From the NCBI GenBank assembly GCA_964573795.1, contig CAZNMF010000049.1:1232-65231 (forward strand): 64,000 nucleotides of DNA. Direction: 5' to 3'. The stretch comes from an uncultured Solibacteraceae bacterium. GTDB taxonomy: Bacteria > Acidobacteriota > Vicinamibacteria > Vicinamibacterales > SCN-69-37. Under the pieces are notes generated by a model. It did no database searches and was not told where the DNA came from. It worked only from the letters and a program-made list of their open reading frames with translations. Positions 1,225-52,458 of the stretch are shown in pieces; the first letter of the stretch is position 1; each line of letters starts with the position of its first letter. Made by a program: the position numbers and the translations under genes.

Positions 1225-1238
1225 GACGGTTGGCCTTC

Positions 1239-2936: not shown

Positions 2937-2946
2937 ACGGTGCACC

Positions 2947-3399: not shown

Positions 3400-3421
3400 C
3401 CGCGCGCGGCGGCGCAGGCCC

Positions 3422-4783
3422 GTGTTCAGCACGACCGACACCATCGTCGCAATCGCGACGCCCCCCGGACGCGGCGGCCTCGGCGTCGTGCGCGTGTCGG
3501 GCGCCGACGCCTGCCGAATCGCGCGCGCGCTGCTCCGGCGCGAGGCGCCGCTCGAGCCGCGATACGCCACATTCGGACGGATCGCCGAGGGGACCGGCGC
3601 GGACACGCGCGTCCTCGACGAAGTCGTCGTCACCTGGTTCGAGTCGCCGCGCTCGTACACGACAGAAGACGTCGTCGAAATCGCCGCGCATGGCAGCCCC
3701 GTGCTGCTCGCGCGCATCGTCCAGCTCGCGATGGCCGCGGGCGCGCGGCTGGCCGAGCCGGGCGAGTTCACGCTTCGCGCGTATCTGCACGGCCGTCTGG
3801 ATCTCGTGCAGGCCGAGGCCGTGGCCGATCTGATCGATGCGGTGACGCCGCTGCAGGCGCGGGCCGCCATGGATCAGCTCGAAGGGACGTTGACGTCCTC
3901 GGTGAAGGCGATTGACGCGGCGCTGTTCGATCTCGCCGCGCGCCTGGAGGCGTCGCTCGACTTCCCCGATGAGGGCTTTCACTTCATCACGCGCGGTGAG
4001 ACGGCGGCCGCGTTGGCGGACATCCGGGAAGGACTGGCGGCGCTGGCGCGTGACGGGCGCGCCGGCCGGCTGATCCGCGAAGGCGGGCTCGTCGTCATCG
4101 GCGGACGACCCAACGCGGGCAAGTCGAGTTTGTTCAATGCGCTGGCCGGGGCGTCGCGAGCCATTGTCACGGACGTTCCGGGCACGACGCGCGACGTGCT
4201 CACCGAGCGCGTGGATGTGGGCGGCGTGCCGCTGACGCTCGTTGACACGGCGGGCCTGCGCCGGACGGACGACGTGATCGAAGCGGAAGGTGTCGGCCGC
4301 GCACGCCAGGCGATGGCCATTGCGGCGCTTCGACTGCTCGTCGTGGATCGATCCCGTCCGATCGACGAGGACGATCGCGTCGAAGCGCCTGCCGAGCGCT
4401 CCATCCTCGTGCGGAGCAAGTCGGACCTGCCGCGCGATCCGTCGTGGCCAGCAATCGAGGAATGGTCCGTGCCGTCGGTCGACGTTTCGGTCGTGACCGG
4501 CGAGGGACTCGATCGTCTGCGCGCGCTGATTCTCGACGCGTTGGCGGATCGCGACGACTGGCGCGACACGCCGGTGATCTCGAACGTCCGTCATCTGAAG
4601 CACGTGCAGCGTGCGCTCGAGGCGCTCGATCGCGCGAGGGCGTCGCTCGACGCGGGGGCGACCGAGGAGCTGGCGCTGGCCGAGCTCGCCGCCGCGCGAC
4701 AGGCGCTCGAGGAGCTGACCGGCCGGCGAACCGCCGACGATTTGCTCGAGCGAATCTTCTCGCGCTTCTGCGTCGGGAAATGA
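3422..4783 (+). CDS. mnmE: tRNA modification GTPase MnmE
   Basis: 453 aa with TIVAIATPPGRGGLGVVRVSG at the N-terminus, G-domain GRPNAGKSSLFNAL, DTAG, and the C-terminal FCVGK. GTG start. Confidence 0.95.
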   Translation: MFSTTDTIVAIATPPGRGGLGVVRVSGADACRIARALLRREAPLEPRYATFGRIAEGTGADTRVLDEVVVTWFESPRSYTTEDVVEIAAHGSPVLLARIVQLAMAAGARLAEPGEFTLRAYLHGRLDLVQAEAVADLIDAVTPLQARAAMDQLEGTLTSSVKAIDAALFDLAARLEASLDFPDEGFHFITRGETAAALADIREGLAALARDGRAGRLIREGGLVVIGGRPNAGKSSLFNALAGASRAIVTDVPGTTRDVLTERVDVGGVPLTLVDTAGLRRTDDVIEAEGVGRARQAMAIAALRLLVVDRSRPIDEDDRVEAPAERSILVRSKSDLPRDPSWPAIEEWSVPSVDVSVVTGEGLDRLRALILDALADRDDWRDTPVISNVRHLKHVQRALEALDRARASLDAGATEELALAELAAARQALEELTGRRTADDLLERIFSRFCVGK

Positions 4784-6621
4784 TCGCGGACATGGATCGC
4801 GTCGACGTCATCGTGATCGGCGCCGGTCACGCCGGATGCGAGGCGGCATGGGCCGCCGCGCGCATGGGATGCCGCGTGGCGATCTGCACGCTGTCGATGG
4901 ACACCATCGCGCTGATGCCCTGCAACCCTGCGGTCGGCGGCACGGCGAAGGGCCATCTCGTGCGTGAGATCGACGCGCTGGGTGGCCTGATGGGCCACGC
5001 GATCGACGCGACGGGCATCCAGTTCAAGCTGCTCAATCGGAGCCGCGGACCCGCGGTGTGGTCGCCGCGCGCGCAGGCCGACAAGCGCCGGTATGGCGCG
5101 TGGGTGCGCGAGGCGCTGTCACGCGAGCCGAATGTGCGCTGGCTCATCGGCCGCGCGGGTCGGATCGTCGTCGATGACGGCCGCGTGACGGGGCTCGAGC
5201 TCGAGGATGGCTCGCGTATCGCGTGCCGCGCGCTCGTCATCACGACGGGCACGTTTCTGAACGGCCTGGTGCACGTCGGCGACGAGCAGCGGCCGTCGGG
5301 CCGCGCCGGCGAGCCGCCGACGCGCGCGCTCGCGGAGTCGCTGCGATCGATTGGCGTCGAGATGGGCCGGCTGAAGACGGGTACGCCGCCGCGGCTCGAT
5401 CGGCGCAGCATCGATTTCTCGCGCTTTCCCGAAGAACGGGGCGACGATCCGATCGTTCCCTTCTCGTTCATGTCGCCGCCGATCGCGCGCGAGCAGATCC
5501 CGTGTCATCTCGTCTACACGACCGAGCGGCTGCACGATCTCGTGCGCGACAACATCGGCCGATCGCCGCTCTACAACGGGCAGATCTCCGGCATCGGTCC
5601 GCGCTACTGCCCGTCGCTCGAGGACAAGGTGATGCGCTTCCCCGAGAAGGAGCGCCATCAGATCTTTCTCGAGCCGGAGGGCGTGGACGTCGACGAGATC
5701 TACGTGAACGGCCTGTCGATGAGCCTGCCGCGGGACGTGCAGGAGTCCATCGTGCACGCGCTGCCCGGCCTCGAGTCCGCGCGCGTGCTGCGGCATGCGT
5801 ACGCGGTCGAGTACGACTTCGTCCAGCCGACGGAGCTGCATCGATCGCTCGAGACCAAGCGTCTGCCAGGCTTGTTCCTCGCCGGCCAGATCAACGGCAC
5901 GTCCGGGTACGAGGAGGCCGCGGCGCAAGGGTTGATGGCCGGCATCAATGCGGCGCACGCGGTGCGCGGGGACGCGCCCGTCGTGCTCGGACGCGACCAG
6001 GCGTACATCGGGATCCTCGTCGACGATCTCGTCACGCGCGGATGTCTCGAGCCGTATCGCATGTTCACGTCACGCGCGGAGCATCGTCTGCGCCTGCGGA
6101 TCGACAACGCGGACCTGCGCCTGACGCCGATCGGCCGCGAGATCGGGCTCGTCGACGAAGCGCGGTGGCGATCGTTCGACGCGCGACGCGAGCGGCTCGC
6201 GCGCAATCTCGATCGCGCGGAGCAAACGCGCGTGGCGATCGACGGAGACACGACGACGGCCGCGCAGGCGCTGTCGCGGCCGCCGGTGACGCTGGAAGAC
6301 CTGCGCGCGGCGGGATTCGCGATCGAGCACGACGCGCGGCGTGGCGATCTGGACGCGGCGACGCTGACCGCGGAGCTGAAATATCGTGGCTATCTCAAGC
6401 GCCATGACGCACAGCTTGCGCGCACGCAGGCGGACGAGGCGCGACGGATTCCCGCGACGTTCTCTTACTCGGCGATTCCTGGGCTCTCGCGCGAAGTCGT
6501 GGAGCGGCTCACCCACGTGCGCCCGGAAACAATCGGCCAGGCCGCGCGGGTGCCGGGCGTCACGCCCGCCGCCATCGCCATCGTCGCCGCGCGCGTGTCG
6601 CGTTGGACGCCTGAGAGCTGA
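4780..6621 (+). CDS. mnmG: tRNA uridine 5-carboxymethylaminomethyl modification enzyme MnmG (GidA)
   Basis: Inner start MIADMDRVDVIVIGAGHAGCEAA... (FAD-binding GxGxxG). The rest of ORF 4444..6621 is typical GidA. ATGA overlap with mnmE. Confidence 0.95.
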   Translation: MIADMDRVDVIVIGAGHAGCEAAWAAARMGCRVAICTLSMDTIALMPCNPAVGGTAKGHLVREIDALGGLMGHAIDATGIQFKLLNRSRGPAVWSPRAQADKRRYGAWVREALSREPNVRWLIGRAGRIVVDDGRVTGLELEDGSRIACRALVITTGTFLNGLVHVGDEQRPSGRAGEPPTRALAESLRSIGVEMGRLKTGTPPRLDRRSIDFSRFPEERGDDPIVPFSFMSPPIAREQIPCHLVYTTERLHDLVRDNIGRSPLYNGQISGIGPRYCPSLEDKVMRFPEKERHQIFLEPEGVDVDEIYVNGLSMSLPRDVQESIVHALPGLESARVLRHAYAVEYDFVQPTELHRSLETKRLPGLFLAGQINGTSGYEEAAAQGLMAGINAAHAVRGDAPVVLGRDQAYIGILVDDLVTRGCLEPYRMFTSRAEHRLRLRIDNADLRLTPIGREIGLVDEARWRSFDARRERLARNLDRAEQTRVAIDGDTTTAAQALSRPPVTLEDLRAAGFAIEHDARRGDLDAATLTAELKYRGYLKRHDAQLARTQADEARRIPATFSYSAIPGLSREVVERLTHVRPETIGQAARVPGVTPAAIAIVAARVSRWTPES

Positions 6622-6627
6622 TCGCGC

Positions 6628-7239
6628 GTGTCGCCCTTCCCCGCTTTGATCCGCGCGCGCGTCGATGCATCCGGGCTGTCAGTCGCGGACGATCTCGTCG
6701 CGAGGCTCGGTGCGTATCTCGACGTGCTGGCGCGCTGGAATCGGCGGATCAATCTCACGTCGTTCGATCTCGACGCGCCTACTGACGCGGCGATCGATCG
6801 TCTGATCGTCGAGCCGCTGCGCGCCGCGGCGTTCGTCCGTGAGTCCGATCGCGTCGCTCTCGACATCGGATCCGGCGGCGGGTCGCCTGCGATTCCGATC
6901 GCGGTCGCGTGCCCGTGGCTGCGCATGACGCTCGTCGAGATCCGCGCGCGAAAGGCGGCGTTTCTGCGCGAAGCCGTGCGCACGGTTGATCTCGCCGGCG
7001 CGCGCGTCGAAGCCGTGGCGTTCCACCGGCTGGCTGCGGACCATTCACTTGCCAAGCAAGTGGATGTCGTCACGATGCGCGCGGTGCGTGCGGATGGGGA
7101 GATCTGGAAGGCGATCGAAGTGTTGCTTGCGCCTGGCGGGCGCGTGCTGTGGTTCGGCGGCGATCGAGGGGCGATTGAAGGTACATCGTTAGCGCCGGTC
7201 GCCAGTAATGACGTTGTCCTCGTGCTCGCACGTCGCTGA
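6628..7239 (+). CDS. rsmG: 16S rRNA (guanine527-N7)-methyltransferase RsmG (GidB)
   Basis: 203 aa following mnmG. Contains ...WNRRINLTS... and the SAM motif DIGSGGGSPAIPIA. GTG start. Confidence 0.9.
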   Translation: MSPFPALIRARVDASGLSVADDLVARLGAYLDVLARWNRRINLTSFDLDAPTDAAIDRLIVEPLRAAAFVRESDRVALDIGSGGGSPAIPIAVACPWLRMTLVEIRARKAAFLREAVRTVDLAGARVEAVAFHRLAADHSLAKQVDVVTMRAVRADGEIWKAIEVLLAPGGRVLWFGGDRGAIEGTSLAPVASNDVVLVLARR

Positions 7240-7353
7240 AGTCGTCGCATGGTTGTAATTGGGCCAAAAGACCAAAACATGCAACCAGCGACCCCTATGA
7301 CATGGTGCCGGCCGGTCCAGACGGGACGCACGTTCCCTCGCGCAAAAGTGACG

Positions 7354-7369
7354 TGTTCCACGTGGAACA
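7354..7369. other. parS-like centromere site, perfect 16-bp palindrome TGTTCCACGTGGAACA
   Basis: Matches the established parS consensus TGTTNCACGTGAAACA at 15 of its 15 specified positions... one position (G for A in the right half) makes it perfectly symmetric. It lies about 800 bp upstream of parAB, in the origin-proximal region. Confidence 0.75.
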
Positions 7370-7404
7370 TGTCGGTCGTCTTCTCTTGTCGACGACGGTC
7401 GCTC

Positions 7405-7632
7405 CTACTTGCGTCGTTCCTTTGATGGATGGCCGCGCTCGGCCATGAAGCGATCGAAGTCGCCCCAATTCAGCTTCCTTGGCTTCTGTTTGCTTCGGCC
7501 GTACCAGACGATCGCGCCGCGCGATACTTTCAACGTATCGAACTTCACGCCGTCGCGGTACACATCAAACGACACATCCGTTGATCGCAGTTCCTGCCAC
7601 GGCACATTGAACTTTGCCCAATGCTCAGCCAT
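7405..7632 (-). CDS. Hypothetical 75-aa protein (family not recognised)
   Basis: ORF MAEHWAKFNVPWQELRSTDVSF...ERRK. It is the only minus-strand ORF in the first 24 kb that does not overlap a recognised gene. It sits in locally lower-GC DNA and has a purine-rich stretch before the ATG. Confidence 0.5.
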   Translation of the reverse strand: MAEHWAKFNVPWQELRSTDVSFDVYRDGVKFDTLKVSRGAIVWYGRSKQKPRKLNWGDFDRFMAERGHPSKERRK

Positions 7633-8166
7633 TTAGTCCCTGCCTTGAAGTGAGAAAGCGTGTCACGCGTCGCCTGGGCTCCACGTCAGGCTTACGCTCA
7701 GGTCGCACGCGAATCCTACTTCGCCTTGAAGGGAAGAACAGCCCGTTGTTTCCAGACATCACGACCACGAGCTGCCTGCGGGTCAGGTCATCGCGGCGCA
7801 GTCATCTCTCCCAGCGTCTCCAATTTTCGCGGCGTGCAACGACATGCGTGGCCGGCTCGCCGCCTGGTCTGTGCCAACTCACAACTTTCCCTCGAGCGTG
7901 ACGCCCAGACGCGACAAACATCACGCGCTCGGCGAGCCGAATGGCCACGGATTCGCCTCGCATGCTCTTCCCTGTCGCTGCCCTACCAATCTCGTCAGCC
8001 AGACGCCGCGCCATCAAGGCTTGGACTTCGGCGCCACACTTTCACGCGCTCGACCATCGCCCGTGCGTCCCGTTCGAAAACCTGACTTGACGGAAGGCGC
8101 GCTCAACGTCGACAATTTCGCCTGTCGCGTCAGAGCCTAGCCAGAAGATATTTGGTCATATAACAT

Positions 8167-9015
8167 ATGAGCGAGCGCGCCCGCATCATTGCCGTCGCCA
8201 ACCAAAAAGGCGGCGTCGCCAAGACGACCACGGCCATCAATCTCGGTGCGTCGCTGGCCATGGCCAATCAGCGTGTGCTGCTCGTCGACCTCGACCCGCA
8301 GGGCAACCTGACGAGCGGCGTCGGACGAAAGGGAAGTCCGGGGCCCGGCGGCACCGCCTATGAGGCGCTCACCGGCGACGACGATCCGCGTGGGTTCGTC
8401 ATTCCGACGGGGGTCGACCACCTGTCGCTCATCCCGGCGGACCGCGACCTCACGGGCGCCGAAATCGAGCTCGTCGGTCTCGATGCCCGCGAGCGCCGGC
8501 TGGAGCGCGTGCTCGCCTCGCTCGCGCCGGACTTCGACTACATCTTCGTGGACTCGCCGCCGTCGCTCGGCCTGCTCACCCTCAACGCGCTCGTCGCCGC
8601 CGACGCGGTGCTGATTCCCCTCAACTGCGAGTACTTCGCGCTCGAGGGCATCGCCGAGCTGATGGCGACGATCGACCGCGTGCGCGCCGCGCTCAACCCG
8701 CGCCTCGCCGTCGAAGGCGTGCTGCTGACGATGTACGACGACCGGACGAACCTGGGTCAGCAGGTGAGCGCCAACATCCGTGAGTTCTTCGGCGACCAGG
8801 TCTACCGCACCGTGATCCCGCGCAACATCCGGCTCGGTGAGGCGCCGAGCCACGGCGTGCCGGTCATCCTCTACGACGCGCGCTCGCGCGGCGCAGAGGC
8901 TTATGTGGCATTCGCACATGAGTTCATGGCGCGCACACGCCGGCCCGCGCCCGACGCCGATGCCGCTGGCACGCCGCCGCCGGACCAGGCGCCGCCGCAC
9001 TCGGAGCAGGAATAG
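8167..9015 (+). CDS. parA: Chromosome partitioning ATPase ParA/Soj
   Basis: Deviant Walker A motif AVANQKGGVAKTTTAINL, plus LLVDLDPQGN. Has a Pro/Ala-rich C-terminal tail. Confidence 0.95.
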   Translation: MSERARIIAVANQKGGVAKTTTAINLGASLAMANQRVLLVDLDPQGNLTSGVGRKGSPGPGGTAYEALTGDDDPRGFVIPTGVDHLSLIPADRDLTGAEIELVGLDARERRLERVLASLAPDFDYIFVDSPPSLGLLTLNALVAADAVLIPLNCEYFALEGIAELMATIDRVRAALNPRLAVEGVLLTMYDDRTNLGQQVSANIREFFGDQVYRTVIPRNIRLGEAPSHGVPVILYDARSRGAEAYVAFAHEFMARTRRPAPDADAAGTPPPDQAPPHSEQE

Positions 9016-9025
9016 GAGCCCGCAC

Positions 9026-9910
9026 ATGGCCGAGAAACGACCCGCGCTCGGACGAGGCCTGAGCGCGCTGATTCCACCCGCGCCGCCACCACAGCCGGCC
9101 GCCGCGCCTGCGCCGCCCGCGCCCGGCGCGCCGGCCCGCCCCACGGAAATCGACATCGATCTGCTGACGCCGAATCCGCGCCAGCCGCGCACGAGCATCG
9201 ACGAGGGCACCCTCGAGGAGCTGGCCCAGTCGATCCGCAGCAACGGCGTGATCCAGCCGATTCTCGTGCGGCCGTCGGGCGGCCGGTACGAGATCGTCGC
9301 CGGCGAGCGGCGATGGCGCGCCGCACAGCGCGCGGGCCTGCTCAAGGTCCCCGTCACGATCCGCGAGATCGACGATGCGAGCCTCCTGCAGGTCGCGCTG
9401 ATCGAGAACATCCAGCGCGAGGATCTGAATCCAATCGAGGAGGCGCAGGCCTATCGCCGGCTGGCCGACGAGCTGAAGCTCTCGCAGGAATCGATCGCCG
9501 GCGCGGTCGGCAAGGACCGCGCGACCGTCGCCAACTACGTGCGCCTGCTCCGGCTGCCGGCCGAAGTGCGGAACGACTTGGCGTCGAACGCGCTCAGCAT
9601 GGGGCACGCGCGCGCGCTGCTCGGCCTGGCCGACGAAGCGGCCCAACGGAGGCTGGCGCGCGAGGTCGTCTCGCGGCAGCTGTCCGTGCGAGAGACGGAA
9701 GCCCTCGTCCGCCGCGAAACGACGCCGGCACCGGTGCCCGCGCCCAAACCGGTCGACCCCAACACGCGTGCCGCCGAAGAACAGTTGAAGCTGGCGCTCG
9801 GCACGCGCACGCGCATCATCCGCAAGGGCCGGGGCGGCCGAATCGAGATCGACTTCACCTCCGAGGACGAGCTCCACCGGCTGTTCGAGCGGTTGACCGA
9901 AACGCGATAG
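9026..9910 (+). CDS. parB: Chromosome partitioning protein ParB/Spo0J
   Basis: Inner start MAEKRPALGRGLSALIP. Contains the ParB box ...IQPILVRP...YEIVAGERRWRAAQRAG... and the HTH ...SQESIAGAVGKDRATVANYVRLL... Confidence 0.95.
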   Translation: MAEKRPALGRGLSALIPPAPPPQPAAAPAPPAPGAPARPTEIDIDLLTPNPRQPRTSIDEGTLEELAQSIRSNGVIQPILVRPSGGRYEIVAGERRWRAAQRAGLLKVPVTIREIDDASLLQVALIENIQREDLNPIEEAQAYRRLADELKLSQESIAGAVGKDRATVANYVRLLRLPAEVRNDLASNALSMGHARALLGLADEAAQRRLAREVVSRQLSVRETEALVRRETTPAPVPAPKPVDPNTRAAEEQLKLALGTRTRIIRKGRGGRIEIDFTSEDELHRLFERLTETR

Positions 9911-15154: not shown

Positions 15155-15160
15155 TCGCTC

Positions 15161-15931
15161 ATGCTGCGCATCACCTCGGCGGTGGCGTCCCATCCGGGTT
15201 TGCGCCGGGAGGAGAACGAGGACTCGTACTGCGTGCGGCCCGACCTCGGCCTCTTCCTCGTGGCCGACGGCATGGGCGGGCACGCGGCCGGTGAGATCGC
15301 GTCGAAGCTCGCCGTCGACGCGATCGAGGCCTTCGTCGCCGACACGAAGAACGCCGACGTCAATCGGACGTGGCCGTTTCCCTTCGATCGCTCGCTGTCG
15401 CTCGACGGCAATCGTCTGAAGGCGGCGTTCCGGCTCGCGAATCGACGCATCGCCGACGCCATGGACGGCAACGAGGCGCTGCGCGGCATGGCGACGACGG
15501 CGGCCGCGCTGCTCGTGGGCCGGGAGCAGCCGGTGGCCGCGCACGTCGGCGACAGCCGCATCTATCGCTGGCGCAAGAGCCAGCTCGAGCAGCTGACGCA
15601 GGATCACTCCTGGGTGAGCGAGCAGGTGCGCGCCGGAATCATCTCGGAGTCGGACGCGCGGCGCCATCCCTGGCGCAACGTCGTCACGCGCGCGCTCGCT
15701 GGCGGCGACGATCCGGACATCGACGTCGCCGTCGTGCCGGTCGAGCCCGGCGATCGGTTCCTGATCTGCTCCGACGGCCTCTCGAGCGTCGTCGGCAAGC
15801 CGGTCATCGAGCGGATCCTCGCGACGAACGCGGATCTCGAGTCGATCTGCCAGGCGCTCATCAACGCGGCCAACGACGGCGGCGGACCGGACAACATCAC
15901 CGTCGCGATGCTGCAGGTCGATGTGGACTAA
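15161..15931 (+). CDS. PP2C-family Ser/Thr protein phosphatase
   Basis: Contains NEDSY, VADGMGGHAAGEIAS, and a C-terminal ...DGGGPDNITV... Confidence 0.85.
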   Translation: MLRITSAVASHPGLRREENEDSYCVRPDLGLFLVADGMGGHAAGEIASKLAVDAIEAFVADTKNADVNRTWPFPFDRSLSLDGNRLKAAFRLANRRIADAMDGNEALRGMATTAAALLVGREQPVAAHVGDSRIYRWRKSQLEQLTQDHSWVSEQVRAGIISESDARRHPWRNVVTRALAGGDDPDIDVAVVPVEPGDRFLICSDGLSSVVGKPVIERILATNADLESICQALINAANDGGGPDNITVAMLQVDVD

Positions 15932-24454: not shown

Positions 24455-24811
24455 TCAAAAGGCCAATTTGTTGGCCGCGTCAGCGGCATCAACGTCGACC
24501 CACTCGACTTCAGAGACGATGGCGCGCTCGCAGTACTCCCAAAACAATCGTCCCAGCACTTCGTGCTTGGGGTCGTTCAGGTAGCCGACAAGTCCTTCGG
24601 CGCCATCAAATTCGAGCACGGCTGCGTATTTGTAGGTCGTGTCACCAAGCGACCTGCCATATCCAGGATCGATCTCGACTCTGCGTCCAACCGAGAGCCG
24701 CCTGACCGTCTCGATAGACCTGCACGTCTCAATCACGGATTGGGCAAATGCCAATTTCTGAGACTGATCCAGTCCGGCCTTTGGCTCGAAGAGCACGATG
24801 TGCGCAATCAT
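24455..24811 (-). CDS. Dabb (stress-responsive alpha/beta-barrel) domain protein
   Basis: 118 aa with MIAHIVLFEPKAG... and ...YKYAAVLEFDGAEGLVGYLNDPKH..., the typical Dabb pattern. Last gene of the EBP operon. Confidence 0.7.
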   Translation of the reverse strand: MIAHIVLFEPKAGLDQSQKLAFAQSVIETCRSIETVRRLSVGRRVEIDPGYGRSLGDTTYKYAAVLEFDGAEGLVGYLNDPKHEVLGRLFWEYCERAIVSEVEWVDVDAADAANKLAF

Positions 24812-25209
24812 CGGGATCGCTTGGGGCCGCGCGACTGCGGCGGGCGACGGGGAGGCCGGCGCTGGCCGTCACCAGCGTCACTGGTCTTCGCGGAGATCAG
24901 GCGGCGTTTGAAGCGCGCGCGCTTCTCGTCGCGCGTGAGTTTGTACTTGGCTCGTGGATCGACATGAGCGCCGCCTGGCCGCCATTCGCGATCCCGCGCC
25001 GCGCTCGCCCGTCGTCGTGCCGCGAACGCGTCGTCGGCTGCCTGCGGCGAGTCCCAGAATCGCCCGCGATCGAACCACTTGAGTGCCACGTTCGGCTGCG
25101 TGCGCTGGAGCTGACGGAGCGTCGGCAGCAGATCCTCGGCCCGTCTCGCGCGAAAAGCCGTCGGCTGCGCGCCCGCGACGATCACCCAGCAGCAGAATCG
25201 CTTCGTCAT
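24808..25209 (-). CDS. Hypothetical 133-aa protein with strongly basic C-terminal tail (family not recognised)
   Basis: ORF MTKRFCCWVIVAGAQPTAFRARRAEDLLPTLRQLQRTQPNVALKWFDRGRFWDSPQAA..., then an Arg/Lys/Pro-rich tail. The ATG lies 3 nt after the EBP stop, and there is an ATGA overlap with the Dabb gene. Confidence 0.55.
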   Translation of the reverse strand: MTKRFCCWVIVAGAQPTAFRARRAEDLLPTLRQLQRTQPNVALKWFDRGRFWDSPQAADDAFAARRRASAARDREWRPGGAHVDPRAKYKLTRDEKRARFKRRLISAKTSDAGDGQRRPPRRPPQSRGPKRSR

Positions 25210-25212
25210 CGC

Positions 25213-26598
<1,386 letters not shown>

Positions 26599-26778
26599 GA
26601 AAGCGACGGTATCTTGACACGAAGCGCGGGCCGAATCGAGGGTGAGGCCTGCGGCGGAGTCGCCGCCAGGAGGCAGCCAGTTAAAGTCACCGTCGAACGT
26701 CGCCGATATTGTGGGTGAACGCGCCCTCGGGCGCGCGGCCGAGTGCACAACCTCCCTCGGCCGCTGGATGGGTGAGCG

Positions 26779-27000
26779 ATGCTGCTAGAACGAAAGACCG
26801 TATCGATTCCGCGGGCGTGCGAGCTGGTCGGTGTCAGCCGCCGCACCATTTACAACTGGATCGCCGGGGGCAAGGTGCAGTACGTCCGGACAGCCGGCGG
26901 TTCCGTCCGTATTTTCGAGGACACGCTCTGGCGTAATCCGGACGCCTCGAACGACGAGCAGGGAGCGGCCTGGACGCAGCGACTCAGTCGTGGCGCCTGA
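26779..27000 (+). CDS. Small excisionase/MerR-superfamily HTH DNA-binding protein
   Basis: 73 aa with ...SIPRACELVGVSRRTIYNWIAGGKVQYVRTAGGSVRIF..., the pattern of HTH_17 / excisionase-family domains. Confidence 0.7.
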   Translation: MLLERKTVSIPRACELVGVSRRTIYNWIAGGKVQYVRTAGGSVRIFEDTLWRNPDASNDEQGAAWTQRLSRGA

Positions 27001-27235
27001 CCCATCGACGGCACCGCCATCGCCTCTCGATCCCGCTGCGCTGTCGCAGGTCTTTCACCGGCTGAACAACCAGCTCGGTGTGATCCTCGCGAACGCCGAG
27101 CTGCTCGAAGCTCGTCTGACCGAAGACACCCAGCGCGCCAGGGCCAGCCAAGTGGTCTCCGGCGCGCTGGAAGCGATCTCGGCGATTCAGGATCTCCGAC
27201 GGATCGTCGGCCTGAACAACCCGGCCAACCGCTAG
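26990..27235 (+). CDS. Stand-alone DHp-like (HisKA helix-hairpin only) small protein, about 81 aa
   Basis: C-terminal part of track ORF 26831..27235. GTG at 26990 overlaps the HTH gene's end by 11 nt. The sequence ...QVFHRLNNQLGVILANAELLEARL...RARASQVVSGALEAISAIQDLRRI... resembles the H-box helix (HDFNNLLTVILGxAELL type) plus a second helix of histidine-kinase dimerisation domains. No ATPase domain follows. High GC3 from the H-box onward. Start codon uncertain. Confidence 0.5.
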   Translation: MAPDPSTAPPSPLDPAALSQVFHRLNNQLGVILANAELLEARLTEDTQRARASQVVSGALEAISAIQDLRRIVGLNNPANR

Positions 27236-27261
27236 CGCCCATGTCGGCGCGATGACAACCC

Positions 27262-27275
27262 TGACAGCCCTGTCA
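27262..27275. promoter_or_regulatory. Perfect inverted repeat TGACAG-CC-CTGTCA (candidate enhancer/UAS)
   Basis: 6-2-6 palindrome, with an extra direct TGACA at 27253-27257. Centred about 150 bp upstream of the -24/-12 promoter at 27420-27435. Confidence 0.4.
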
Positions 27276-27419
27276 ATCGGCCGACACCAAACGGCCGGGA
27301 TGTTCGCGCCGCTTCACGGCAATTCACAGTCCATCAGCAGACGCTAACTGACGCTCGGAAAGCGATTTAGGGGCACTTGATTCCTCGCGTGGCTTCCGGC
27401 GCCTCACCCGATTTTCACA

Positions 27420-27435
27420 TGGCATCGCTGTTGCC
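27420..27435 (+). promoter_or_regulatory. Sigma-54 (-24/-12) type promoter TGGCAT-N5-TTGCC
   Basis: The sequence tGGcatcgctgttGCc has exact GG-N10-GC spacing and matches TGGCAC-N5-TTGCW at all but one position. It lies 40 nt upstream of the sigma-factor ATG and is followed by the RBS GGAGGAGG (27462-27469). Confidence 0.65.
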
Positions 27436-27474
27436 TTGGTGACTGGTCCCGGCCGTGTGCCGGAGGAGGTCTCA

Positions 27475-28290
27475 ATGCAACGCGTGCCCTTGGCGGCATC
27501 TGAACAGCGGCGGGTCGAAGCGGGTCTCCCGTTCGTCGAGTCGCTGGCCCGACGCATGGCGTCGACCATGCCGCACTCGATCGACCTGGGCGATCTCGTG
27601 CAGGACGGCGTGCTCGGGCTGATCGACGCCGCGCACCGCTTCGACGAGGCGCGCGGGATCAAGTTCGAGACGTTCGCCGAGCGCCGCGTCCGCGGGGCGA
27701 TGATCGACGCGCTGCGCCGGGACGCGTGGCCGCGCGGCGTCCGCCGCGTCCGCCGCGAGCTCGAGGCCGCGCGCGAGCAGTTGCGTCGCGAGCTCGGCGC
27801 CGAGCCGACGATTGCCGACCTCGCGCGCCGCGTCGGCGCCGACGAGGCGCAGTTGGAGCGCACGATCGTCCGCATCAGCACCATCGAGTCCACCTCACCG
27901 CTGGCCAATCTCGAGACGATGGACAGCTCGACGCTGCCGCCGGTGCTCGTGCCGAGCGAGCCCGTGTCGCCGGAACGGCTGTTCGAGCAGAGTCAGACGC
28001 GCGAGCGCGTCCGCGCCGCGCTGGTGCAGCTTCCCCCGCGCGAGCGGCGGATCCTGTCGCTCTACTATTTCGGCGATGCGACGATGAAGCAGATCGGCCA
28101 GGAGATCGGCGTCAACGAATCGCGCGTCTCGCAGCTGCACGCGCGCGCCATTCAGCGCCTGCGCCGCCTGCTGACCGCGCCGGCGCGCACCGAGCCCGTC
28201 AAGGGGCCGCGCCTGGTCGCGAAGACGACGCGGCAGAAGTATCCGGTCGCGCGCCCGCGTCCGGCCGTGCTGCCGAGCCGCGCCGCGTAG
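27475..28290 (+). CDS. FliA/WhiG-family (sigma-28-like) RNA polymerase sigma factor
   Basis: Inner ATG after a strong RBS. Region 2 is DLVQDGVLGLIDAAHRFDEARGIKFETFAERRVRGAMIDALRRDAWPRGVRR (the D-W-x-P-R hallmark of FliA-type sigmas). Region 4 is ...RERRILSLYYFGDATMKQIGQEIGVNESRVSQLHARAIQRLR... Confidence 0.85.
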   Translation: MQRVPLAASEQRRVEAGLPFVESLARRMASTMPHSIDLGDLVQDGVLGLIDAAHRFDEARGIKFETFAERRVRGAMIDALRRDAWPRGVRRVRRELEAAREQLRRELGAEPTIADLARRVGADEAQLERTIVRISTIESTSPLANLETMDSSTLPPVLVPSEPVSPERLFEQSQTRERVRAALVQLPPRERRILSLYYFGDATMKQIGQEIGVNESRVSQLHARAIQRLRRLLTAPARTEPVKGPRLVAKTTRQKYPVARPRPAVLPSRAA

Positions 28291-28351: not shown

Positions 28352-29905
28352 CTATCGCAGCGTTTCGCGCGCGACGCGCACCAGGTCGCGAAGACGGAAC
28401 GGCTTGGGCACCCAGCGGCAGCCGCTCTCTTCGAGGAAGCGCTCCGCCTCCGTGCCCGCGACGTCACCGGTCACGAAAATCAGCCGGCGCGCGATGTGCG
28501 GCATCTTGGCCGAGACTTCGCGGAAGAACGCCATGCCGTCGACCTTCGGCATCTTCAAGTCGCAGATGATTACGTCGTAGTGCGTCTCGCGCACTTTCTT
28601 CAGCGCCGCTTCGCCGTTCTCCGCGCGATCCGTCCGGAACCCTTCATCGGCCAGCGCCGCCGCCACCGCGTCGCCGAGCGCGGGCTCGTCCTCCACGACC
28701 AGCGCGCGCGTGCCCTTTGGCACGTCCGGCAGCGGCTGCGCGGGCGCCGGCTCCTGCGTGCGCAGTGACGCGCCGCTCACCGGCAGCTCGAGCAGAAACG
28801 ACGCGCCGCCTTCCGGCAGCGACGACACGCTGATGCGGCCACCGTGCTCCTGCGCGATCGCGTACGCGACGGTCAGCCCGAGTCCTGTGCCCTTGCCGAC
28901 GGGCTTCGTCGTGAAGAACGGCTCGAAGACCTTGTCCTGCACCTGATCCGGCACGCCAGGACCGTCGTCGGCGACTTCGAGGACGACGGCGTCGCTCTCG
29001 GCGTCGTGCCAGGAGCGCAACGTGAGCGTGCCGCGGCCGTGTGCCTCGAGCATCGCCTGCTCGGCGTTGATCACCAGATTGAGGACGATCTGCTGGATCT
29101 GGTGCGGATCGACGAAGACCGGCGGCAGCGACGAGGCGAGCGAGTCGGCGATGGCGATCTGGCTGCCACGCTGGTCGTAGGCGCGCAAGGCGAGCGTCTC
29201 GCGCACGACCTGATTGATGTCGACGGTCATGCGCGTCGTGTGACGCTTGCGCGCGAACGTCTGCAGGTTGCGGACGATGCGCGCGGCGCGCTCGGCGGCG
29301 TTGTGGATGGCGTCGAGATCGCGCCGCGTGACGTCGTCGACGCGCTGGCCCGTGAGCCGCTCGGCGCACGCCAGGATCGTGGCCAGCGGAGTGTTCAGCT
29401 CGTGCGCCACGCCCGACATCGTCTGGCCGAGGGAGGCCATCTTCTCGGATTGCGACAACTGATGGGCGAGCTCGCGGCCCTGATCCTGCAGCTTCTTGCG
29501 ATCCGTCACGTCGCGCATGATCGCTTCGACGCGCAGCGTCGCGCCGGATGCGAGCGTCTCGGCGCGCGCGGTGACCTCGATCCACATCGCCGTGCCGTCG
29601 AGGCGCCGCACGCGCACGAGCGTGTCGCGGGCCGCGCCGTCGCGCGCGAGCTGACGCAGGAGCTCGGCGCGCGCCAGCTCGTCGACGAAGCGATTGGGAT
29701 CGAACGGGCGCACCTCGGCGGCCGGGGCATCGTCGGGCCAGCCGAACATGACGCGCAGGTGGCGATTGGCCGCGAGCGTCGCCGTCTCCGCCGGTCCGAT
29801 CAGGCCGATGTAGACGCCCTCGGGAAGGTTGTCGAAGAAGTGGGCGAACGCGTCGAGCGAGAGCGCCGACGAATCGCGGCGGCGAGCGGGGGAACGCGGC
29901 GTCAC
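28352..29905 (-). CDS. Soluble hybrid sensor histidine kinase (PAS-HisKA-HATPase-REC)
   Basis: PAS-like segment (...GTAMWIEVTARAE...IMRDVTDRKK...), H-box SGVAHELNTPLATI, N and G boxes (LVINAEQAM, DDGPGV, GKGTGLGL), and C-terminal REC (ALVVEDEP...DVIICDLKMPKVDG). No TM segment. The start is set at a GTG 2 nt after the upstream stop; the track ORF's N-terminal extension overlaps the PCYCGC gene and is rejected. Confidence 0.85.
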   Translation of the reverse strand: MTPRSPARRRDSSALSLDAFAHFFDNLPEGVYIGLIGPAETATLAANRHLRVMFGWPDDAPAAEVRPFDPNRFVDELARAELLRQLARDGAARDTLVRVRRLDGTAMWIEVTARAETLASGATLRVEAIMRDVTDRKKLQDQGRELAHQLSQSEKMASLGQTMSGVAHELNTPLATILACAERLTGQRVDDVTRRDLDAIHNAAERAARIVRNLQTFARKRHTTRMTVDINQVVRETLALRAYDQRGSQIAIADSLASSLPPVFVDPHQIQQIVLNLVINAEQAMLEAHGRGTLTLRSWHDAESDAVVLEVADDGPGVPDQVQDKVFEPFFTTKPVGKGTGLGLTVAYAIAQEHGGRISVSSLPEGGASFLLELPVSGASLRTQEPAPAQPLPDVPKGTRALVVEDEPALGDAVAAALADEGFRTDRAENGEAALKKVRETHYDVIICDLKMPKVDGMAFFREVSAKMPHIARRLIFVTGDVAGTEAERFLEESGCRWVPKPFRLRDLVRVARETLR

Positions 29906-29907
29906 GC

Positions 29908-30426
29908 TCAGCCGCCGGCGGGCGGTTGCGGCGTCGGCGTGTGACCCATGTGGCGCCCGCCGAAGCGCTGTTCGACCGCAGCGCGGATTTGCGCCACCGA
30001 CGCGCCCGCGTCGTGCATCTGCATCGCCATCTGCGCGACGTCCACGCACACTTCGCAGCCGATGCCGTGCTCGTCCCATTCGACGACATGGCCCTGGCTG
30101 TCTCGACGCTTGACGTAGCAATCGTGGTTCGCCTGATGCCCGCCGCGCTCGCAGCCGCAGAAGCACGGCACGTAGCGCAGGACTTCCGGATGCCGCGCGG
30201 CGAACGCGTACGCGCTCTTCACGACGGGCACCGGACGGACGGCGTACGACAAGCTCGACGGCAGCGGCGGCAAGTCGCTCGCGACGATGTTGAAGCCGGA
30301 AGACGCGCCGCTCGCCGGCGCGCTGGAGGCGCTCGACGACGAGGACGCGCCCGGCGAGCACGAGCCCGCCGCGATCGCAGCGGCCAGGACGGCCGCGGCC
30401 GTCGACGCGCGAGTCGATGTGCGCAC
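29908..30426 (-). CDS. PCYCGC-motif (lipo)protein
   Basis: 172 aa with a GTG start. Signal/lipobox-like N-terminus ...AAAIAAGSC, a Ser-rich linker, then ...VLRYVPCFCGCERGGHQANHDCY...CEVCVDVA... matching the PCYCGC-motif domain pattern. Confidence 0.75.
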   Translation of the reverse strand: MRTSTRASTAAAVLAAAIAAGSCSPGASSSSSASSAPASGASSGFNIVASDLPPLPSSLSYAVRPVPVVKSAYAFAARHPEVLRYVPCFCGCERGGHQANHDCYVKRRDSQGHVVEWDEHGIGCEVCVDVAQMAMQMHDAGASVAQIRAAVEQRFGGRHMGHTPTPQPPAGG

Positions 30427-30462
30427 GCGGGAATCTTATCATCCGCTGTAGACTGGCCGGAC

Positions 30463-31943: not shown

Positions 31944-33725
31944 ATGCAACCGCCATCCGTTCAACCGCAGCCGACGACCCTGTCCGGGAACGAGCGTGAC
32001 ATCCTGCTGACGCTGTTCGATCTCGGCCGGAAGATCGCCTCGGTCATCGAGCTCGACGAGCTGCTGCCACGCATTCCTGAGCTGGTCGGCCGGTTGATTC
32101 CATTCGACGCGTTCGCGGTCTATCTCGTCAGCGAAAAGCGGCAGATGTTCAAGCTCGGCTACGCCATCGGGTATCCGGACGACGCCGCGCGCGCCGAGCT
32201 CAGCCTGTCGGACGGGGTGCTCGGACGCGTGGTGACGACGCAGCAGCCGCTCGTCATCGGCGACGTCACCGCCGACCCGAGTTACGTCAGCGTCGTGCCA
32301 GGCATGCACGCGACGCTCGCGGTGCCGCTGATCCACAAGTCGAAGGCGATCGGCGTCCTGAACGTGCTCAGCCGCGAGCGCGATCGCTATTCGGAGCGCG
32401 ACGTCGCCATCCTGCGCCAGTTCGCCGCGCACGTTGCCACCGCGCTCGTCAACGCGCGCCTGTTTGCGCAGGAACGTCACGACGCCGAAGCGTTCGAGAC
32501 GCTGGCGGAGGTCGGCCGCGAGATGGCCGGCCTGCTCGATCTCGATCGGCTGCTCGCGCGCATCGCGCAGCTCGGACGGCGGCTCGTCGACTATCGGACG
32601 TTCGGCATCCTGCTCCTGAACGAGGCGACCGGCGAGCTCGAGATCAAGGCCGCCGTGCAGTACGGCGAACAGGTCGTCCTGCCGAAGGTACCGGTCGGCG
32701 AAGGCCTCGTCGGGTACGCGGCCAAGTATCGCGAGCCGGTCTACGCGCCCGACGTCTCGAAGGATCCGCGCTATATCCAGGTGCTCGAGGACGTGCGCTC
32801 CGAGCTCGTCGTGCCGATGCTCGTCAAGGATCGCTGCGTCGGCGTGTTCGATCTCGAAAGCCCCGACCTCGACGCGTTCTCCAAGCGCGACATCGAGATC
32901 CTCAAGCTGCTGGCGAGCCAGGCGGCCGTGGCGATCGAGAACGCGCGGCTCTATGCCGAGCTGTCCGCCAACGAGGCGCGGCTCGAGCGGGAGCTGCGCT
33001 TCGCGCAGCGCGTGCAGACGGCGCTGCTGCCGACGCAATTGCCGAAAAAGGTCCGCGGCGTGGATCTGGCCGTCTCGTTCGCGCCGGCGCGCGAGCTCGG
33101 CGGCGACTTCCACGACCTGCTCGTCCCCGAGTCCAACACGCTCATCGTGGCGGTGGGCGACGTGTCGGGCAAGGGCGTGCCCGCCGCGCTGTATTCCGTG
33201 TTCGCCGGCGAGCTGGTGCGCGGCCGCACGTTCCGCCGCCGCTATCTGCCGGAGCGATCGTCGCCAGCCAAAGTGCTGATGTCGATCAACACGATCCTCC
33301 ACGAACGACAGTTGGAGGAGTACTACTGCACGCTGTGCTACGCGTTCTTCGATTTGAAACGGCGGACCGTGACGCTCGCGAATTCGGGCGTGCCGTATCC
33401 GATCCGCGTCACCCATGGCGTCGTCAGCCAGATCGAGCTGCCGGGCGTGCCGTTGGGATCGTTCTTCGGTGTGAGCTACGACGAGGTCACGCTGCCGCTG
33501 GAGATCGGCGACGTGTTCTTCTTCGGATCCGACGGCGTGTTCGAGGCGATGAACGCGGCAAGTGAGGAGTTCTCGTCCGCGCGCGTCATGGAGATCGTCC
33601 GCGACGCCCGCACGCAGTCCGCCGCCGAGATCGTCGATCGCGTCTCGCAGGCGATCGAAAGCCATCGCGCCGGCTTTCCTTCCAACGACGACACGACGAT
33701 GATCGCGCTCCGGATCACGGAGTAA
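31944..33725 (+). CDS. GAF-GAF-PP2C (SpoIIE/RsbU-type) serine phosphatase
   Basis: Two GAF-like modules (...GVLGRVVTTQQPLVIGDV...AVPL...; ...GLVGYAAKYREPVYAPDV...VVPM...), followed by ...RELGGDFHDLL...VAVGDVSGKGVPAAL...GSDGVFEA...NDDTTMIALRI. Confidence 0.85.
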   Translation: MQPPSVQPQPTTLSGNERDILLTLFDLGRKIASVIELDELLPRIPELVGRLIPFDAFAVYLVSEKRQMFKLGYAIGYPDDAARAELSLSDGVLGRVVTTQQPLVIGDVTADPSYVSVVPGMHATLAVPLIHKSKAIGVLNVLSRERDRYSERDVAILRQFAAHVATALVNARLFAQERHDAEAFETLAEVGREMAGLLDLDRLLARIAQLGRRLVDYRTFGILLLNEATGELEIKAAVQYGEQVVLPKVPVGEGLVGYAAKYREPVYAPDVSKDPRYIQVLEDVRSELVVPMLVKDRCVGVFDLESPDLDAFSKRDIEILKLLASQAAVAIENARLYAELSANEARLERELRFAQRVQTALLPTQLPKKVRGVDLAVSFAPARELGGDFHDLLVPESNTLIVAVGDVSGKGVPAALYSVFAGELVRGRTFRRRYLPERSSPAKVLMSINTILHERQLEEYYCTLCYAFFDLKRRTVTLANSGVPYPIRVTHGVVSQIELPGVPLGSFFGVSYDEVTLPLEIGDVFFFGSDGVFEAMNAASEEFSSARVMEIVRDARTQSAAEIVDRVSQAIESHRAGFPSNDDTTMIALRITE

Positions 33726-50870: not shown

Positions 50871-51827
50871 ATGAACGCGTTGTATGCACAGTTGTGTCGC
50901 CATGACGCCCAGGCGTGGCGGAAGGCGATCGACACGCTCGCCGCAGAAATCCATCCCATCGACCGCAACGCGACGCGCATCTGGTTCGCGTTCTATCCGC
51001 TGGATCTGTTCCTCGCGCTCGAGGCGTCCGAGGATCCGGCGGCGGCTGCGCGCACGCTCGGCCTGATGGGGAACTGGCGCCTGTCGGAGCAGATCGACAC
51101 GTCGCACCGTTTCCTGTACGCGCATCGCTACTGGCCGCAGGTCAAGTCGGCCGTGCAGCACGCGCCGGCGGCGCTGCCCGACGATCTCGCGGCGCTCGTC
51201 AGCGCGGTGGCGGAGTCGGCCGCGCGGACCGCGCGCGTCGATCGCGAGTTCCTGCTCGGCATGGGCGCCGTCGCGCTGATGACGCTCCGGCAGGCCGGTC
51301 CGGAGGCGTTCGCGGCCGCCCCGGGAAAGATTCATCTGTCCGAGCGCGCCCGCGCGATGTCGCCGCACCAGGTGATGACGCAGCGTGCGCGCGACGACTG
51401 GCAGGGCCTCTTCGGTTTCCTCCGCGGCCTGAAGAAGCGGTGGACGATCAGATTCGACGAAGGCGATCCGGAGGCGGCGTTCGCGCTGATCGACGGCCAG
51501 GAGATTGCGACCGCGGCGCAGACCGACAAGCGCGACTATCACTCGCGCGATCCGCGCTGCACGCCGAACGAAGGGCCGATTCCCGTCGAGTGCCGCGCGG
51601 CGTCGTGCGGCACGTGCTGGGTGGGCGTCATCGCCGGCGCCGAGAAGCTCTCGCCCGTCGTCGATCGCGACGAGCGCCGGCGGATGAAGGTATTCGGCTA
51701 TCTCGATTCGCCGGAAGAGCGTCCGCTGATTCGCCTCGCGTGCCAGGCGCGCGCGCACGGCGCGGTGACGATCGTCATTCCGCCGTGGAACGGCGTCTTC
51801 GCTAGTTGCTGCCGTCGGGAGGCCTGA
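50871..51827 (+). CDS. Two-domain protein: unrecognised about 200-aa N-terminal domain + C-terminal plant-type 2Fe-2S ferredoxin-like domain
   Basis: C-terminal ...ECRAASCGTCWVGV... (C-x4-C-x2-C) plus ...RLACQA..., spaced as in 2Fe-2S ferredoxins. The N-terminal part is not recognised. Confidence 0.6.
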   Translation: MNALYAQLCRHDAQAWRKAIDTLAAEIHPIDRNATRIWFAFYPLDLFLALEASEDPAAAARTLGLMGNWRLSEQIDTSHRFLYAHRYWPQVKSAVQHAPAALPDDLAALVSAVAESAARTARVDREFLLGMGAVALMTLRQAGPEAFAAAPGKIHLSERARAMSPHQVMTQRARDDWQGLFGFLRGLKKRWTIRFDEGDPEAAFALIDGQEIATAAQTDKRDYHSRDPRCTPNEGPIPVECRAASCGTCWVGVIAGAEKLSPVVDRDERRRMKVFGYLDSPEERPLIRLACQARAHGAVTIVIPPWNGVFASCCRREA

Positions 51828-52395: not shown

Positions 52396-52458
52396 AGGAC
52401 GCCTTTTCGAGGCACGCAGTCGACCGAGCAAGGGATGTGCCACGCCGTTCAGCGCCGA

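Follow-up and report, generated by a model that had tools for sequence, protein, structure and literature searches.

A sigma-54-type promoter conserved in front of a FliA/WhiG-family sigma factor gene in Vicinamibacterales, with candidate activator sites and a sigma-28-type promoter for probable feedback

Described sigma-54 and sigma-28 circuits and the present locus

In Vibrio cholerae, sigma-54 and the AAA+ activator FlrA produce sigma-28 from the class II gene fliA, which is expressed together with flagellar and chemotaxis genes and checked by FlgM, and Vibrio FlrC carries a phosphorylatable receiver domain (PMC6504787). Here, we describe a locus of comparable design in a 64,000-nt stretch of DNA from an uncultured soil acidobacterium of the order Vicinamibacterales (contig CAZNMF010000049.1; hereafter the window, with positions counted from its first nucleotide): a gene for a FliA/WhiG-family sigma factor preceded by a sigma-54-type promoter, with a gene for an NtrC-type sigma-54 enhancer-binding protein (EBP) close by and a sigma-28-type promoter farther upstream. 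As in Vibrio, a sigma-54 promoter and an AAA+ activator would lead to a sigma-28-type factor, which would then read promoters of the type TAAA-N15/16-GCCGATAA, and the EBP has a phosphorylatable receiver domain, as FlrC does. Unlike Vibrio fliA, the present gene lies in a housekeeping neighbourhood in which no flagellar gene or FlgM was found nearby, and it appears to share an operon with an excisionase (Xis)-like helix-turn-helix (HTH) protein and with a DHp-only protein. We consider it probable (roughly 0.7) that the sigma-54 promoter, its activator and the sigma-28 feedback constitute a regulatory module conserved across Vicinamibacterales.

Enterobacterial fliA has dual promoters, one of class 2 that depends on FlhDC and one of class 3 that depends on sigma-28. 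The present locus is similar in that an activator-dependent ignition promoter would be combined with a sigma-28 autoregulatory promoter to give positive feedback; it differs in that the ignition promoter is of the sigma-54 type and the autoregulatory promoter lies two genes upstream, where it would raise the HTH and DHp proteins too. NtrC/NifA promoters (glnAp2, nifH) combine tandem dyad upstream sites with IHF and a -24/-12 core. Two predicted dyad activator sites, an IHF-like site between them and the core, and a -24/-12 core were also observed here, whereas the sites are farther upstream (approximately -167 and -196), three phased repeats lie in the loop region, and the EBP has a receiver domain rather than a GAF domain.

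Two comparisons concern sigma factors of this family outside flagellar systems. Streptomyces WhiG is a non-flagellar FliA-type sigma factor, and direct repeats are the binding sites of BldC, which is small and Xis/MerR-like. The present locus likewise contains a FliA/WhiG-family sigma factor, a small excisionase-like HTH protein and phased direct repeats in the control region, but it belongs to another phylum, its HTH protein matches BldC weakly (E 0.5), and no RsiG signature was read in its DHp-like protein; we know of no sigma-54 dependence of whiG. In Chlamydia, which is non-flagellate, sigma-54 and sigma-28 are the only alternative sigma factors and a two-component EBP is present. If the present organism is non-flagellate, it would resemble Chlamydia in having both types of alternative sigma factor together with a two-component EBP, although the gene context is unrelated; to our knowledge, no direct sigma-54 promoter has been established for the chlamydial sigma-28 gene.

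Vibrio class II fliA and the enteric dual fliA promoters thus provide precedents for the circuit logic. The present locus differs from these systems in its phylum, in its genomic surroundings without flagellar genes, in the Xis-like and DHp-only proteins that share the operon, and in the phased repeats of the loop. Vicinamibacterales correspond to Acidobacteria subdivision 6, a group that ranks with the most abundant bacteria of soil but is hardly tractable in the laboratory, and a literature search returned nothing on their transcriptional regulation or on the present module. The locus offers a fully specified, testable circuit, in which promoters of two classes, the enhancer, the phased repeats and five proteins are conserved across the species examined. 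Should its regulon be non-flagellar, it would add a further repurposed FliA-type sigma factor after Streptomyces WhiG and Chlamydia sigma-28, with an upstream signal path that can be read from the DNA; should flagellar genes be present elsewhere in these genomes, it would be the acidobacterial version of a textbook hierarchy.

The sigma-54-type promoter and its upstream sites

27420-27435, forward strand: sigma-54-type (-24/-12) promoter TGGCAT-CGCTG-TTGCC (TGGCATCGCTGTTGCC), identified by GG-N10-GC and by conservation
27449-27463, forward strand: 5'-untranslated-region hairpin CCGGC-N5-GCCGG (RNAfold)
27475-28290, forward strand: 271-aa FliA/WhiG-family sigma factor (Pfam, TIGR02479 and PDB matches)

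An earlier sequence-only reading of the window had proposed a TGGCAT-N5-TTGCC element with GG-N10-GC spacing in front of a sigma factor gene with a strong ribosome-binding site, and each of these features was found where it had been placed. GG occupies 27421-27422 and GC occupies 27433-27434, which is the exact GG-N10-GC geometry. A stretch of 39 nt separates the element from the ATG at 27475, the ribosome-binding site GGAGGAGG lies at 27462-27469, and the transcription start predicted from the promoter is at approximately 27445-27447. Two -24/-12 motifs with at most one mismatch were found in the window vs. 1.39 expected, which is not significant alone; comparative analysis was therefore taken as the evidence instead.

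The comparison set consisted of 80 loci with relatives of the sigma factor (67-83% protein identity), kept from 537 stretches encoding such a relative in a genome collection; the loci came from different genomes, all of them Vicinamibacterales or other Acidobacteriota metagenome-assembled genomes. Background motif counts covered 1.94 Mb (both strands) of the sequence compared. The intergenic alignment comprised 76 upstream regions, and column counts are given out of 76.

Exactly one TGG[CT]A[CTG]-N5-[TA]TGC was found at most 400 nt upstream of the sigma start in 79 of 81 sequences (78 of the 80 loci, plus the window itself), and across loci the element lay 44-168 nt before the ATG. The two loci without it were L002, in which TTGA replaces TTGC, and L056, in which the contig end cuts the region. 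Elsewhere, the same pattern occurred 33 times in 1.94 Mb, or 0.0073 times per 430 nt. Mean column identity in the intergenic alignment was 40%, and 15 columns were invariant. Eight of these 15 were the T, G, G and A and the T, T, G and C of the -24/-12 element, with a variable 5-nt spacer between them. Because the invariant columns are the sigma-54 contact bases and the spacer is variable, we regard the promoter as real: this footprint, at 78 of 80 loci against a background of 0.0073, strongly supports a true sigma-54-type promoter directly upstream of the FliA/WhiG-family gene, as had been proposed.

It is highly improbable that TGG-N-A...TTGC is instead bound by a different protein, or forms part of an RNA element within a transcript that reads through. 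Such a reading would agree with the failure to see rpoN in the window or the loci; against it, the invariant positions are exactly those contacted by sigma-54 on either side of a variable 5-nt spacer, the leader of the sigma gene has no Rfam match, and the EBP, the enhancer and the IHF-like site stand in the classical arrangement. GC-rich leader hairpins were predicted by RNAfold in most loci, with differing stem sequences. In the window, the 3' arm of the hairpin at 27449-27463 extends into the beginning of the Shine-Dalgarno sequence, and the hairpin may protect the 5' end of the mRNA or control access to translation.

Five features were distinguished upstream of the promoter.

27242-27257, no strand assigned: predicted upstream activator site 1, TGTCGGCGCGATGACA (GTCA-N6-TGAC type), centred at approximately -196 from the predicted start
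27262-27275, no strand assigned: perfect palindrome TGACAG-CC-CTGTCA, 158 bp upstream of the promoter, with only the right arm conserved
27271-27286, no strand assigned: predicted upstream activator site 2, TGTCAATCGGCCGACA (consensus cGTCAA-N4-TTGACg), centred at approximately -167
27303-27328, forward strand: three direct repeats TTCGCG, TTCACG and TTCACA (consensus T[TG]CAC) with an exact 10-bp period
27345-27369, no strand assigned: A/T-rich element with an IHF-like core (consensus AATCAA-N4-TTA at 27357-27369), recognised by column conservation

The conserved units of this region, and the likely activator sites as judged from their conservation, are two GTCA-N6-TGAC inverted repeats. A GTCA-N6-TGAC motif was found between -260 and -100 in 64 of 76 loci, compared with a background of 0.03 per 100 nt. 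At site 1, the column counts were G 72, T 53, C 72 and A 59 in the left half and T 65, G 72, A 57 and C 75 in the right half. At site 2, G27272, C27274 and A27275 were invariant, and G27283 and C27285 were each present in 75 of 76 sequences. The motif was absent upstream of the other sigma-54-type promoters examined (including one at 52427-52442, described below) and from the spacer between the EBP and HTH genes, and thus appears specific to the promoter of the sigma gene. Both sites of the window also read TGT-N10-ACA, the pattern known for NifA sites, whereas the family consensus is GTCA-N6-TGAC.

The sequence-only reading had assigned the enhancer to the palindrome, with an additional TGACA half-site. 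Both sequences are present, the palindrome at 27262-27275 and the TGACA at 27253-27257. The palindrome is perfect and lies 158 bp upstream of the promoter; its role as the enhancer is nevertheless improbable, and we rejected it as neither conserved nor beyond chance. TGACAG-N0-4-CTGTCA was found in none of 75 relatives searched, and the left-arm columns (27262-27267) had no majority base among relatives. The intergenic region contained two perfect inverted repeats with 6-nt arms vs. a shuffle mean of 0.70, and 18% of shuffles reached two. The units that are conserved are the flanking GTCA-N6-TGAC repeats: the right arm of the palindrome is the left half of site 2, and the additional half-site belongs to the conserved repeat of site 1 (27242-27257), not to the palindrome.

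The phased repeats and the IHF-like site, both missed by the earlier reading, sit between the enhancer and the promoter. The direct repeats start at 27303, 27313 and 27323, with the alignment consensus CTTCACnnnnCTTCACAC. Since the spacing from the repeats to the promoter differs between loci, their conservation was counted from alignment columns: T27313 was present in 72 of 76 sequences, T27323 in all 76, C27325 in 70 and C27327 in 74. In the A/T-rich element, TAA at 27345-27347 and TT at 27367-27368 were invariant or nearly so, and A27361 was present in 69 of 76. Across the family, the core reads AATCAA-N4-TTA, in agreement with the consensus for IHF, WATCAANNNNTTR.

Many relatives (e.g., L033, L041, L049, L054 and L070) carry a T-rich motif, TTCGCTTTTTGATCG, immediately in front of the -24 element, where the window has only CCCGATTTTCAC. 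Two further sigma-54-type promoters were observed away from the sigma gene. The first, in the window, is a perfect consensus, TGGCAC-ATCCC-TTGCT, at 52427-52442 on the reverse strand, in a short gap after the stop codon of the upstream gene and 32 nt before the ATG of an open reading frame (ORF) of approximately 198 aa (51802-52395, reverse strand); the product has a signal-peptide-like N-terminus and no Pfam or NCBIfam match. The second, TGGCA[CT]-N5-GTTGCT, is conserved in 18 more distant loci (L029, L038, L048, L050-L052, L055-L057, L061, L062, L067, L069, L071, L072, L074, L076 and L077), approximately 60-80 nt before a gene for a small membrane protein that begins MLETIAIILIILW. It lies on the minus strand, approximately 4.6-6.2 kb downstream of the sigma start.

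The sigma-28-type promoter, the sigma factor and its operon

26682-26709, forward strand: sigma-28-type promoter TAAAGTC-N13-GCCGATAT, 70 nt upstream of the HTH gene
26779-27000, forward strand: 73-aa Xis/BldC-like (HTH_17, excisionase-family) DNA-binding protein (Pfam HTH_17, NCBIfam and PDB)
26993-27235, forward strand: 80-aa stand-alone DHp-like helical hairpin with the H-box FHRLNNQLG(I/V)ILANAELLE

A second promoter, of the sigma-28 type and missed by the earlier reading, was found upstream of the HTH gene, with a predicted start at approximately 26716-26718. It was testable in the 73 loci that hold both the EBP and the HTH genes, and cTAnAG-N16-CCGATA was present in all 73 with invariant spacing. 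Closer relatives read TAAAGTC...GCCGATAGT and more distant ones read CTA[CT]AG...CCGATAAC. The strict pattern gave 68 matches at this place and zero elsewhere in 1.94 Mb. When metagenomes were scanned with TAAAGTC-N13-GCCGATAGT, the matches were mostly flagellar and chemotaxis promoters of other bacteria, in front of flagellin, MotA, FlgM, flagellar rod-family, PilZ, CheX and MshEN/T2SSE ATPase genes; the present HTH gene was recovered approximately eight times among 120 matches. Because the same motif precedes flagellar genes of other bacteria and is conserved in 73 of 73 loci, we consider it a canonical sigma-28 promoter. It is of the type cognate to the sigma factor that it precedes (TAAA-N15/16-GCCGATAA), which suggests that this sigma factor reads it. 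No terminator-like site was detected between the DHp and sigma genes. With a sigma-28 promoter upstream of the HTH, DHp and sigma genes, the sigma factor probably drives its own operon by positive autoregulation, and the simplest reading is a three-gene operon driven by its own sigma factor and ignited by the internal sigma-54 promoter.

The assignment of the 271-aa product to the FliA type in the earlier reading is borne out by its best solved relatives, which are FliA and WhiG, with a borderline score for TIGR02479. Pfam Sigma70_r2 and Sigma70_r4 scored above their cut-offs and region 3 scored below (20.9 vs. 25.3 bits), and the architecture is that of group 3 (regions 2, 3 and 4, without region 1.1). 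TIGR02479 (FliA_WhiG) was the best NCBIfam model (188.3 bits), ahead of the SigB/F/G and RpoS models. The best PDB match was E. coli FliA (6pmi, 1e-36), followed by the sigma-factor chain of 6pfv (5e-34), which we take to be the WhiG-RsiG complex, and Aquifex FliA (1rp3, 1e-27); Pseudomonas FliA was also among the best solved relatives, and RpoS was far behind (5e-19). The ATG at 27475 is supported by the homologue alignment, in which family members begin MQR(A/V)PL. The protein ends in a conserved basic, proline-rich tail of approximately 40 aa (PRLVAKTTRP...), which typically terminates in RRAVA. In the window, the tail corresponds to 28180-28290 (residues approximately 235-271) and ends in SRAA. 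It extends past the part matched by FliA models and might serve as a degradation or interaction tag.

These matches bear directly on the question of whether the gene is an ordinary flagellar fliA, with the flagellar genes elsewhere in the genome, in an acidobacterial counterpart of the sigma-54-to-fliA hierarchy of polar flagellates. The cognate promoter is identical to the canonical FliA promoters of flagellin, FlgM and MotA genes in other bacteria, and the best solved relative is E. coli FliA. Even so, we consider this reading unlikely. As the earlier reading had stated for the window, the scanned ORFs of the 64 kb contained no domain of flagellar or chemotaxis type, a scan that covered all but a few short or unassigned stretches, and no FlgM Pfam match was found among the neighbours that would indicate a FlgM-like anti-sigma factor. 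Tblastn likewise found no flagellar, chemotaxis or FlgM homologue in the 80 loci, each from a different species and searched to a distance of approximately 6 kb from the gene (approximately 1 Mb in total). The sigma gene is surrounded by conserved housekeeping genes (mfd, surA, YhaM-like and FabA-like genes) and not by a flagellar cluster, the sigma-28 motif occurs nowhere else in the 1.94 Mb, and the conserved C-terminal tail reaches beyond the FliA-model match. The cultured members Vicinamibacter silvestris and Luteitalea pratensis have reportedly been described as non-motile. Absence of flagellar genes from complete genomes, if confirmed, would raise the interest of the finding.

The first small protein of the operon scored above the cut-offs of TIGR01764 (37.2 vs. 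28.8) and Pfam HTH_17 (35.1 vs. 27), and its residues 1-52 are highly conserved. Its best PDB match was mycobacteriophage Xis (4j2n, E 6e-4), and BldC (6ama/6amk) matched weakly (E 0.5). Membership in BldC proper was rejected, with a subfamily-model score of 22.7 vs. a cut-off of 77. Xis/BldC-type proteins bind phased direct repeats head-to-tail and bend DNA, which makes the HTH protein a natural candidate for the T[TG]CAC repeats upstream of the sigma-54 promoter; by this analogy, it may bind them. The GTG start of the DHp gene (26993-27000) overlaps the last codons and the stop codon of the HTH gene (GTGGCGCCTGA), and close relatives retain the C-terminal residues SRGA of the HTH protein, so that the two genes may be translationally coupled.

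The second small protein resembles a DHp domain standing alone. His22 and the H-box were invariant in an alignment of 41 homologues and at least 95% conserved across 76 locus sequences. The Pfam HisKA match was weak (E 0.009; 16.5 bits vs. a cut-off of 26.9). The AlphaFold model (pLDDT 86.5) has helices at residues 14-41 and 45-74, and its top Foldseek matches were the DHp domains of GacS, ERS1, RetS and CpxA. The c-di-GMP signature of RsiG, E-x3-S-x2-R-x3-Q-x3-D, was not found on reading the DHp-like sequence. The database contained 1235 homologues, and the 120 listed were 61-99 aa long and without a Pfam domain; this family of 80-aa DHp-only proteins, with 1235 unannotated members, is worth study by itself.

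The metagenome scan also placed other genes directly behind the exact sigma-28 motif. A recurrent family of proteins of approximately 185-200 aa with signal-peptide-like N-termini (e.g., MSAIGRILLP...VEYVGGTVQSIP) and no Pfam domain was encoded there in nine independent contigs (L108, L121, L122, L134, L164, L171, L177, L186 and L191), MshEN/T2SSE ATPases in three (L089, L159 and L197), and PilZ proteins in three (L117, L146 and L178). The CheX locus L098 was rejected as a Vicinamibacterales target, as it comes from Opitutaceae (Verrucomicrobia), and a DtxR-like candidate (L104 and L176) had no support from conservation. The high-GC candidates were not assignable to Vicinamibacterales, tetranucleotide similarity being non-discriminating.

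The proposed circuit and the gene neighbourhood

25213-26598, reverse strand: NtrC-type sigma-54 EBP with receiver, AAA+ sigma-54 interaction and Fis-type HTH domains (Pfam, GAFTGA and Asp56)
28352-30442, reverse strand: convergent hybrid histidine kinase with PAS-HisKA-HATPase-receiver architecture (Pfam; nearest NCBIfam models EspC and CckA)

A sigma-54 promoter gives no transcription before the closed complex has been remodelled by an EBP. The EBP that the earlier reading had placed 0.8 kb away was recovered by Pfam at 25213-26598 on the reverse strand (Response_reg, Sigma54_activat with E 9.6e-73, AAA_lid_14 and HTH_8), and its translation contains the motif DILITD. It is a divergent syntenic neighbour of the sigma gene, with 61-88% identity, in every locus that reaches that far. 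The analysis shows which DNA elements are conserved, how they are arranged and to which families the proteins belong; from this we infer the pairing of sites with proteins, the phosphorelay, the read-through and the regulon as follows. The most likely activator is this divergent EBP, phosphorylated on Asp56, which would bind the two GTCA-N6-TGAC repeats approximately 165 and 195 bp upstream and reach the promoter by DNA looping over the IHF-like A/T-rich site. The sigma factor so produced would then recognise the sigma-28 promoter at 26682-26709, upstream of the HTH, DHp and sigma genes. As no terminator was detected before the sigma gene, read-through would raise sigma synthesis in a positive feedback, which would also yield the two small proteins. 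The HTH protein, on the T[TG]CAC repeats, could exert an architectural feedback on the sigma-54 promoter. The invariant His of the DHp protein might pass phosphate from the hybrid kinase to the EBP in a His-Asp-His-Asp relay; equally, the DHp protein might heterodimerise with the kinase and inhibit it, as RetS does.

Several observations weigh against this circuit. A search for an RpoN box, which covered the window and the 80 loci, had no match, although the GAFTGA motif of the EBP and the further conserved -24/-12 promoters indicate indirectly that a sigma-54 system is in use in the lineage. In the window itself, the right half of site 2 departs from the motif at one position and the IHF-like core is degenerate. 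The sigma factor falls just under the TIGR02479 cut-off (188.3 vs. 189.6 bits), and neither the window nor approximately 1 Mb of related loci contained the sigma-28-type motif at a second target. The fold matches of the DHp protein are not statistically significant (Foldseek E 0.3-1). Finally, the loci share a collinear gene order over the whole 15-kb neighbourhood, which runs from mfd to the gene for a GAF-SpoIIE phosphatase, so that the adjacency of the EBP and kinase genes is only weak evidence that they act here.

This synteny of the whole 15-kb region, which makes adjacency unspecific, also speaks for a real sigma-54 promoter that is activated by an EBP encoded elsewhere, with the neighbouring EBP, kinase and DHp protein regulating something else; sigma-54 bacteria often encode several EBPs. 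We regard this as rather improbable: in every locus that reaches that far, this regulatory region is also the one from which the EBP gene diverges, GTCA-N6-TGAC sites were absent from the other sigma-54 promoters examined, and only one GAFTGA protein was found per locus. A broader version of the proposed circuit is possible but doubtful. It would be a lineage-specific, non-flagellar commitment switch, in which a relay from the kinase through the DHp protein, as a new type of stand-alone phosphotransferase, to the EBP would start sigma synthesis, the sigma factor would lock itself on, the Xis-like protein would reshape the loop, and the regulon would serve development or survival (dormancy, envelope change or exopolysaccharide) and not motility.

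Three further features adjoin the EBP and kinase genes.

24808-25209, reverse strand: conserved ORF of 133 aa (tblastn in 64 loci; no Pfam or NCBIfam match)
26608-26620, no strand assigned: conserved 13-mer GGTATCTTGACAC (GGTAT(T/C)TTGACAC), abutting the EBP start codon
29926-31416, forward strand: YhaM-like gene

The 133-aa ORF has the orientation of the EBP gene, follows it after a gap of 3 nt and is therefore probably co-transcribed with it. GGTATTTTGACAC was found in nearly all intergenic regions between the EBP and HTH genes, and the 13-mer might have a part in autoregulation of the EBP gene or function as an element of a promoter. In more distant loci, GGTCAA was observed approximately 13-15 nt from the 13-mer. 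Tblastn covered approximately 500-560 C-terminal residues of the hybrid kinase in the loci, and its true start is probably near 29900.

Two PP2C-type phosphatases, which are typical inputs of partner-switching systems, were observed in the window, and no anti-sigma or anti-anti-sigma gene was seen nearby. One is a GAF-GAF-SpoIIE (PP2C) phosphatase at 31944-33725 on the forward strand, 3.6 kb downstream of the sigma gene, and the other is encoded upstream (15155-15931, forward strand). The rest of the window otherwise contains housekeeping genes. Its first part (897-9910) opens with yidC, jag (R3H), mnmE, mnmG, rsmG, parA and parB, and therefore probably adjoins the replication origin.

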